This document shows positions 7,680 to 8,005 of a DNA stretch of 16,519 nt, in pieces. The position numbers and the translations under genes were made by a program. How positions within the stretch are numbered: the first letter of the stretch is position 1; every line of letters starts with the position of its first letter. The DNA comes from a virus (lineage: Duplodnaviria > Heunggongvirae > Uroviricota > Caudoviricetes), in IMG/VR virus record IMGVR_UViG_3300028298_000002; one strand, 5' to 3'. The notes beneath the pieces are model-generated. The model worked only from the letters and a program-made list of their open reading frames with translations, did no database searches and was not told where the DNA came from.

Positions 7680-7751
7680 TGTGATCGACAAGATTTGAAC
7701 TTGTGTCCCCGCCTCTTCAGGGCGATGCTAGGCCAACTCAGCTACGACCAC
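7680..7751 (-). tRNA. tRNA-Phe(GAA), cassette 3
   Basis: GTGGTCG/CGATCAC acceptor, TCGCC-CTGAAGA-GGCGG anticodon arm. Confidence 0.9.
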
Positions 7752-7761
7752 ATTAATTTTG

Positions 7762-7837
7762 TAGCGATGGCCAGATTTCAACTGGCGCTTCCCTGGTCCC
7801 AAACCAGGTCGGAAAAAGCAGACTTCCGTACATCGCT
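7762..7837 (-). tRNA. tRNA-Pro(UGG), cassette 3
   Basis: AGCGATG/CATCGCT acceptor, CCTGG-TTTGGGA-CCAGG anticodon arm; D loop TGCT (C19) with T loop TTGAAAT (G56). Confidence 0.88.
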
Positions 7838-7846
7838 ATGTAAAAC

Positions 7847-7877
7847 AAAAAACCCCAACATTTCTGCTGAGGTTTTT
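7847..7877 (-). terminator. Intrinsic terminator (attenuator) ahead of tRNA cassette 3
   Basis: AAAAACCTCAGC-agaaat-GTTGGGGTTTTT followed by TGTTTT, about 10 nt before tRNA-Pro. Confidence 0.85.
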
Positions 7878-7897
7878 CGTAGTAGTGTTTTAAATTT

Positions 7898-7966
7898 TTA
7901 ACATAACGATTCCAGAGCAAGAAGTTGCTTAAAAAACTGCGGCTGAAATTGTGTTTTGTTTTTCAT
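7898..7966 (-). CDS. Leader peptide 3 (22 aa) MKNKTQFQPQFFKQLLALESLC
   Basis: ATG lies 8 nt after the -7 element; codons 6-12 CAA TTT CAG CCG CAG TTT TTT are all Gln/Phe/Pro, the amino acids of the downstream cassette. Confidence 0.85.
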   Translation of the reverse strand: MKNKTQFQPQFFKQLLALESLC

Positions 7967-7974
7967 TTGGACTG

Positions 7975-8005
7975 CAATGATAGTGCAATTTTTTGAATCT
8001 GCAAA
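7975..8005 (-). promoter_or_regulatory. Bacteroidota sigma70 promoter P3
   Basis: TTTG-N19-TATCATTG (one mismatch to TAnnTTTG). Confidence 0.72.

Follow-up and report, generated by a model that had tools for sequence, protein, structure and literature searches.

Leader attenuators of amino-acid biosynthetic operons, such as trpL, pheL, hisL, leuL, and thrL of Escherichia coli (Rfam Trp_leader, Phe_leader), consist of a short open reading frame (ORF) near the promoter, with regulatory codons in region 1 of an RNA whose 1:2, 2:3, and 3:4 pairings are mutually exclusive, and of an intrinsic terminator ahead of the controlled genes. Some of these leaders are multivalent; that of ilvGMEDA senses Ile, Leu, and Val, and the thr leader senses Thr and Ile. 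Such leaders mix the codons of several amino acids, so that a shortage of any one of them results in read-through. In the attenuator of E. coli pheST, a cellular gene, the leader (pheM) has Phe codons, reads charged tRNA-Phe, and controls a synthetase. T-box riboswitches also choose between terminator and antiterminator according to the state of a specific tRNA, but translation plays no part in them, as the uncharged tRNA itself is bound.

The presence of tRNA genes in phages is an old matter of debate, with codon compensation, replacement after host shut-off, and escape from tRNA-cleaving defences as the proposed reasons. Two studies (van den Berg et al., 2023, PMC10264068; Burman et al., 2024, PMC11464382) treat phage tRNAs as a countermeasure to defences that cleave tRNA. 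They provide a rationale for replacement tRNAs that are needed only under some conditions; apparently, they concern the tRNAs themselves and not a sensor of their transcription. A full-text literature search yielded no description of leader-peptide attenuation of tRNA genes. As far as we found, the mechanism of attenuation is already known, while tRNA genes as its output are apparently unpublished.

Here, we analyzed a 16,519-nt stretch of viral DNA (Caudoviricetes; IMG/VR record IMGVR_UViG_3300028298_000002), hereafter the window, whose tRNA array includes three modules of leader, terminator, and tRNA cassette. A preliminary description of module 3 had read it as an attenuator ahead of tRNA-Pro, -Phe, and -Gln. 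Supported by a conserved sensor and terminator, by pairing of region 2 in relatives, and by modules 1 and 2, we likewise interpret module 3 as a ribosome-mediated (leader-peptide) transcription attenuator gating these three tRNA genes, and we put the probability of this reading at roughly two in three. The regulatory response is inferred, and there are no expression data.

Module 3 shares with the classical leaders a promoter-near short ORF, regulatory codons in region 1, an intrinsic terminator ahead of the genes under control, and a layout of three alternative pairings, of which 2:3 is weak in the window. Unlike the attenuators of amino-acid operons, however, it controls tRNA genes instead of biosynthetic enzymes, resides in a phage of a Bacteroidota-type host, and has a nearly leaderless mRNA. 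In the classical operons, synthesis or charging of the sensed amino acid is encoded after the leader; module 3 does not fulfill this criterion, as the genes that follow it are those for tRNA-Pro, -Phe, and -Gln. The mixture of codons for several amino acids resembles the ilvGMEDA and thr leaders, but Gln, Phe, and Pro are without metabolic logic and instead equal the set of tRNA genes that follows. Nearest in logic is the pheST leader, which also places a component of translation under leader-peptide control; its output is an aminoacyl-tRNA synthetase and one amino acid is sensed, whereas the output of module 3 would be tRNAs and three amino acids would be sensed. The proposed dependence of the terminator/antiterminator choice on the state of specific tRNAs is a likeness to T-boxes, from which module 3 differs in having a conserved ORF, and no T-box or specifier structure was found in it with Rfam. 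Neither the Rfam leader families nor the T-box gave a minus-strand match at the gathering score, and the sole match to Phe_leader (RF01859) scored 28.6 bits against a threshold of 55 bits and was on the plus (wrong) strand.

Organization of the tRNA array and of the module 3 leader

The identical window sequence recurs in several lake-water metagenome runs, including contigs from four other lake-water runs, which being identical supply no extra sequence variants; none of the runs found to carry it was an RNA run. Among GenBank phages, nothing beyond short tRNA matches to the window was found. ARAGORN identified 22 tRNA genes, all on the minus strand, in an array spanning 7837 to 4333. The flanking genes are phage-like, encoding a VRR-NUC nuclease (8475-8110), a T5orf172-type protein, a DNA ligase homologue, and a Lar-like protein. 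For the additional tRNA detected by Rfam (Table 1), we read the anticodon loop as having GTA (Tyr), and with this gene the module 1 cassette is complete. ARAGORN also located the tRNA-Pro/Phe/Gln cassette directly 3' of the module 3 leader unit, in agreement with its previous placement; all three of its genes exceed the Rfam tRNA threshold, and the array contains no second Pro, Phe, or Gln tRNA outside this cassette.

Table 1. Features of module 3 and associated elements in the window, and leader peptides of the related contigs.
Feature	Position	Strand	Remarks
Intrinsic terminator of upstream VRR-NUC gene	8050-8014	-	10-bp stem + T-run
Bacteroidota-type promoter	8005-7975	-	-33 TTTG 8005-8002, 19-nt spacer, -7 box TATCATTG 7982-7975; function inferred
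Leader ORF	7966-7898	-	22 codons + TAA, MKNKTQFQPQFFKQLLALESLC; ATG 7966, TAA 7900-7898
Sensor	7951-7931	-	seven consecutive Gln/Phe/Pro codons (codons 6-12); also region 1 (codons 6-11)
Region 2, antiterminator 5' strand	7923-7909	-	TTCTTGCTCTGG (7923-7912) + AAT; pairs with sensor (1:2) or terminator 5' arm (2:3)
Intrinsic terminator	7877-7842	-	A-tract, stem CCTCAGCA/TGTTGGGG, GNRA loop GAAA, then T6GT4
tRNA-Pro (TGG)	7837-7761	-	ARAGORN; Rfam 47.6 bits; begins 4 nt past U-run
tRNA-Phe (GAA)	7751-7679	-	ARAGORN, Rfam
tRNA-Gln (TTG)	7668-7597	-	ARAGORN, Rfam
Module 2 leader	ATG 7358	-	39 residues; then terminator, then Thr through Arg
Module 1 leader	ATG 5002	-	MKNLSLHSYLSLY...; then terminator, then His, Ser, Ser, Tyr, Leu, Leu
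Extra tRNA	4584-4512	-	Rfam only, 48.4 bits; not called by ARAGORN
Leader peptide, L027			MKNILNITTQFQPQFSKQLLLMESYC
Leader peptide, L028			MKKILNITAQFQPQFSKQLLLMESYC
Leader peptide, L030			MKNTLNIATPFQPQFTEHLLLLE
Leader peptide, L033			MKNITTQFQPQFFKQLLAVESYC
Leader peptide, L085			MKNILNITAQFQPQFSVRATSVDGIVL

The terminator of the nuclease gene sets the module 3 leader apart as a separate transcription unit. In alignment A1 this terminator is an 87-nt insertion missing from L027-L031 (relatives described below), in which the promoter is found directly after the nuclease stop codon. Since the leader ATG is only 8 nt past the -7 box, the 5' UTR is very short or absent, and translation from a near-leaderless start is assumed. 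The ORF at 7966-7898 fulfills the criterion of a short ORF close to the promoter.

The preliminary description had reported a run of Gln, Phe, and Pro codons at codons 6-12 of this ORF, plus CAA at codon 14, and had naively estimated its chance occurrence as (8/61)^7, about 1e-6. The run was confirmed at its minus-strand coordinates, with codons 6-12 being CAA TTT CAG CCG CAG TTT TTT and codon 14 being CAA. Runs in which 7/7 codons belong to {CCN, TTY, CAR} occur a single time among the ~33,000 six-frame codon windows of the window, at the sensor itself, and shuffled versions of the window (n = 200) contained a mean of 0.01 such runs per window. Considering that Pro, Phe, and Gln together make up 0.129 of the codons in 17 long ORFs of the phage, the sensor run has a probability of 6e-7 per position, or about 1e-5 per ORF; the per-position value is close to the naive estimate, whose arithmetic was therefore sound. 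Counted over the whole leader ORF, codons of the cassette set number just 8/21 (binomial p = 3e-3). Module 3 fulfills the criterion that the regulatory codons of a leader attenuator be clustered beyond chance.

Alternative pairings of the leader RNA

A simple terminator scanner did not report the hairpins of the three modules (M1-M3), and RNAfold and RNAalifold were used instead. The module 3 terminator has a fold energy of -15.2 kcal/mol, its 5' arm corresponding to region 3 and its 3' arm to region 4. Neither a TAnnTTTG box nor any other promoter box was seen from the terminator to tRNA-Pro, which means that the cassette can be expressed only via terminator read-through. The terminator thus stands where a leader attenuator requires it, after the ORF and ahead of the genes under control.

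RNAalifold analysis of the six available leaders returned a 16-bp terminator and, in 6/6 variants, a helix in which AAUUUCA (CAA-UUU-CAG) of the sensor plus GCAG pair with UGGAAU plus CU.. of region 2. The criterion of a 1:2 helix containing the regulatory codons is fulfilled, though its pairs are mostly invariant. Indeed, because most pairs of the 1:2 helix and of the terminator do not vary, there is little true covariation; in L033, where CCTC of the arm is replaced by CCCC, one U-G pair in the terminator becomes C-G. When the terminator 3' arm was left out of the folding and the sensor was masked, region 2 paired with the terminator 5' arm (2:3). Folding thereby recovered the pairing of TTCTTGCTCTGG (7923-7912) with this arm that had been suggested from inspection, and the MFE fold contains the AGCAA/TTGCT hairpin that had been suggested as well. 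Sensor codons, region 2, and the two terminator arms together form the four-region trp layout.

The antiterminator had also been called weaker than those of the other modules, and in the window it is indeed poor: the duplex between region 2 and the terminator arm has an energy of -7.9 kcal/mol and does not surpass shuffled controls (p = 0.11). Among the relatives, the corresponding values are -10.9 to -13.6 kcal/mol (p = 0.004-0.06 versus shuffles), reached by three different versions of region 2 pairing with an arm that hardly varies. The antiterminator was scored by per-sequence duplex energies and not by column-wise pair counts, since the pairing register differs by one base among variants.

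The inferred geometry of a stalled ribosome is compatible with this layout. With its A site on codons 6-11 and a footprint of ~12 nt downstream, the ribosome would end at or before 7924. A stall at these codons would be inferred to leave region 2 (7923-7912) free, and from codon 12 onward region 2 would be covered. The core conserved among variants coincides exactly with codons 6-11.

Conservation of the leader in related phages

Five distinct metagenome phage contigs (L027, L028, L030, L033, and L085) are related to the window; L029 is a copy of L028 and L031 a copy of L030, so that six variants were counted with the window included. The nuclease of these relatives is 74-77% identical to that of the window, and all five have the order nuclease, leader, Pro, Phe, Gln, and further cassettes. 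The ATG, the core (Q/P)FQPQF (codons 6-11), and the terminator are kept in 6/6 variants, as are the promoter elements TTTG and TAnnATTG. Conservation of the QFQP run in homologous arrays had been named beforehand as a check, and homologues keeping the terminator without the Q/F/P bias as a refutation; the run was present in the form given above and every variant retained both elements.

The start codon of the leader is conserved in all relatives, and so are the reading frame and stop position, apart from the frameshifted tail of L085 and the earlier stop of L030. Changes within the core are limited to CAG to CAA, which is synonymous, and CAA to CCA, which replaces Gln by Pro, and both of these amino acids belong to the cassette set. 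The indels found 5' of the sensor measure 12 and 9 nt, and the reading frame is consequently preserved up to the sensor. As judged from these comparisons, the in-frame indels and the synonymous or Gln/Pro changes of the sensor constitute evidence that the leader may be translated, although translation itself is inferred. The peptide 3' of the sensor is unconserved among the relatives. L085 carries a +4 nt insertion there that places the tail in another frame, and the L030 leader ends four codons early; despite their altered tails, both retain the nucleotide strand CTTCTG..TGGAAT. This pattern would be expected if the first half of the leader is constrained by its codons and the second half by its role as RNA.

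Conservation of the ORF, of its ATG, and of part of its sequence could also mean that the 22-residue peptide is the product itself, perhaps acting in regulation or at a membrane, and that it precedes the tRNAs only incidentally. We regard this as very improbable, since the C-terminal half is not conserved as protein (another frame in L085, truncation in L030), the N-terminal part tolerates indels of 3-4 codons, and only the six sensor residues are fixed. The fact that helices 1:2 and 3:4 are conserved as RNA would agree with an RNA switch that is not translated, or with an element for processing or pausing, which senses a protein, tRNA, or metabolite and contains the ORF by accident. Such an element finds little support, however, in the ATG and open frame maintained through the sensor in 6/6 variants, in the in-frame character of the pre-sensor indels, and in Gln-to-Pro and CAG-to-CAA changes that occur at unpaired positions and stay within the codon set; in addition, Rfam gave no riboswitch or T-box match. 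We therefore consider it improbable and retain the reading as a translated leader.

Mean identity is 84% for the leader and 83% for the promoter, compared with 69-71% for the three cassette tRNA genes, tRNA-Pro being as low as 48% among variants. Since the leader and promoter are more conserved than the tRNAs, their conservation does not merely reflect recent common ancestry. The six variants represent one phage lineage, however, always with the same Pro/Phe/Gln cassette, which leaves no scope for co-variation of sensor and cassette within this family; part of the conservation of the sensor could stem from RNA pairing instead of codon identity. VRR-NUC relatives at <=65% identity for which DNA or gene lists were readable had no tRNA array beside the gene. 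In IMG/VR, no related array was found with two protein queries and four DNA patterns, and a fifth DNA pattern gave just unrelated coding matches.

In two relatives, protein genes are inserted between tRNA-Phe and tRNA-Gln, namely a 130-aa ORF in L027 (6594-6986) and a GatB_Yqey-like ORF in L033 (3044-3229), and these insertions interrupt the cassette with the leader unchanged. L030 has a 175-aa HTH gene between the Lys and two Arg tRNAs and, directly 5' of the Arg tRNAs, an ORF, MKKTRNIKYSSAIRRSRRSR (7733-7796, plus strand), with six Arg codons of both classes; a canonical terminator was not seen for this ORF.

Occurrence of the terminator hairpin in Chitinophagales

Exact copies of the 24-nt core of the module 3 terminator are present in 16 metagenome contigs and 24 genome contigs (L035-L074). 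As judged from reading of the flanking sequence, the core is located directly behind a chromosomal tRNA-Phe gene of Chitinophagales, including Ferruginibacter and Segetibacter, in 13/16 of the metagenome contigs and about 17/24 of the genome contigs. One Ferruginibacter MAG matches the terminator at 36/36 nt, again behind tRNA-Phe. The loop varies among matches (GAAA, GCAA, and GUAA), and the tRNA-Phe genes ended by the matching hairpin in Chitinophagales are monocistronic. Isolated matches were also found in Vibrio, Photobacterium, and Maribacter, indicating that short terminators can coincide. These results show that the module 3 hairpin is of a gene-end terminator type used in a plausible host clade, the Chitinophagales; the shared terminator may be a clue to the host, or the hairpin may have been captured from it.

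A leader derived by decay from a host tRNA-Phe gene was considered and rejected, as the flanks are unrelated: between the leader flanks and the tRNA-Phe locus no similarity was detected past the hairpin and its A and T tracts. The same observation bears on the possibility that the 36-nt hairpin serves the phage for attachment or recombination, or was captured from a host tRNA-Phe locus, and is without regulatory function. The full identity to the Ferruginibacter MAG and the position of the 24-nt core behind tRNA-Phe in most Chitinophagales matches would be consistent with such an origin. However, a phage attP should show identity extending into the tRNA 3' end together with an integrase, and this criterion is not fulfilled; identity is limited to the hairpin, and no integrase was present among the scanned ORFs of the window (the rest of the roughly 80-kb genome being outside the search). 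Moreover, the hairpin's presence in Vibrio, Photobacterium, and Maribacter makes coincidence possible, and modules 1 and 2 use sister hairpins in an identical role. The attP reading was considered unlikely, and we hold a non-regulatory attachment site or captured piece to be very improbable; a host origin of the hairpin is in any case compatible with its use in an attenuator.

Recurrence of the design in modules 1 and 2 and in an unrelated phage

In the module 1 leader, 14/21 codons are those of its own cassette (p = 6e-6), and in the module 2 leader the count is 32/38. A 3x3 table of leaders against cassettes gave a chi-square p of 1e-8, in line with the earlier suggestion that module 3 replicates the design of module 1 with a different amino-acid set. 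The leaders of modules 1 and 2 are conserved in the relatives, and their sister hairpins (CCTC..GGGG + T-run) occupy the matching role.

A comparable arrangement was found in an unrelated public huge phage, LR756502.1 (L099; minus strand, 8792-8649). Its leader ORF, MNLNTLTVVNNTL..., has at codons 2-13 only Asn, Leu, Thr, or Val, and is followed by a hairpin and U-run; the array 3' of the leader contains Asn, Asn, Leu, Val, Ile, Thr, Val, Thr, and Leu tRNAs. Within the ORF, GAGGGUUUUGAU pairs perfectly with the terminator 5' arm, forming a 12-bp antiterminator. A 67-aa ORF is situated between this terminator and the tRNAs.

Another account of module 3 would be a constitutive small ORF with a leaky terminator, which would provide fixed, low read-through into the tRNAs or mark the end of a small-peptide gene, the Q/F/P run sensing nothing. 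Terminators 5' of tRNAs could merely tune dosage, the antiterminator of the window is no better than chance, and no expression data exist. It leaves unexplained, however, the match between codon run and cassette in module 3, in modules 1 and 2, and in LR756502.1. Likewise, the sensor core is the best-conserved coding part of a leader whose peptide tail is free to frameshift, and region 2 remained complementary to the terminator arm through three sequence versions. On this evidence we judge a leaky terminator unlikely and favor attenuation.

Proposed mechanism and its meaning

In the proposed attenuator, transcription would begin at the promoter at 8005-7975 and a ribosome would initiate at the ATG almost at the 5' end of the RNA. 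If Gln, Phe, and Pro codons were decoded rapidly, the ribosome would move across region 2 (7923-7912) and reach the stop codon. Formation of the terminator (7877-7842) would follow, and RNA polymerase would halt 4 nt before tRNA-Pro. If decoding of codons 6-11 were slow, the ribosome would occupy region 1 and region 2 would be free to pair with the emerging 5' arm of the terminator; the terminator would then not form, and the three tRNAs would be transcribed. The newly made tRNAs would relieve the stall, amounting to negative feedback. The component parts, their conservation, and the alternative pairings come from the analyses above, while translation of the ORF, the start site, and the response are inferred. 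The weakest points of the attenuator reading are the poor antiterminator of the window (-7.9 versus -15.2 kcal/mol for the terminator) and the absence of expression data.

We infer that the signal during infection is a shortage of tRNA, through loss or cleavage of host tRNAs or through high demand, and not amino-acid starvation. Since additional tRNA would be of no use under amino-acid starvation, what the leader senses physiologically is conjectural. A broader and more speculative possibility, which we consider doubtful at present, is that the attenuators serve as phage surveillance of the host tRNA pool, detecting and repairing tRNA loss by isoacceptor group. Each cassette of replacement tRNAs would then stay silent until ribosomes stalled on its test codons, and the stall might be caused by a host anticodon nuclease, by another tRNA-depleting defence, or by phage-induced host shut-off.

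Should slow decoding of its own codons be what turns a cassette on, the phage would itself reveal when its tRNAs are needed, and the debate over phage tRNAs would become experimentally testable with a simple reporter. Leader-peptide attenuation would also be extended from amino-acid and synthetase genes to tRNA genes, and the modules would supply natural sensors, modular in design, that report how available specific tRNAs are and that function in Bacteroidota-type hosts.

Additional features of the array

Past tRNA-Gly, a 73-nt spacer (5887-5814, minus strand) contains a stem-loop with CTGCAAA. The relatives have a tRNA-Cys in the matching place, and three of the codons in the module 2 leader are for Cys. 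The spacer may be a degenerate tRNA-Cys, but this lacks confirmation by both ARAGORN and Rfam. Three long spacers of module 2 (7185-7057, 6885-6672, and 6263-6040, minus strand) are kept in the relatives and have strong helices, e.g., TTAGTGGTGGC...GCCACTAAGCG, without a match to an Rfam family; they may be unknown structured RNAs or processing elements. Finally, a mini-ORF, MKNKK* (7508-7491, minus strand), overlaps the -33 region of the module 2 promoter (7485-7453). Its first 13 nt are identical to the start of the module 3 leader, and it may be the remnant of a duplicated leader.
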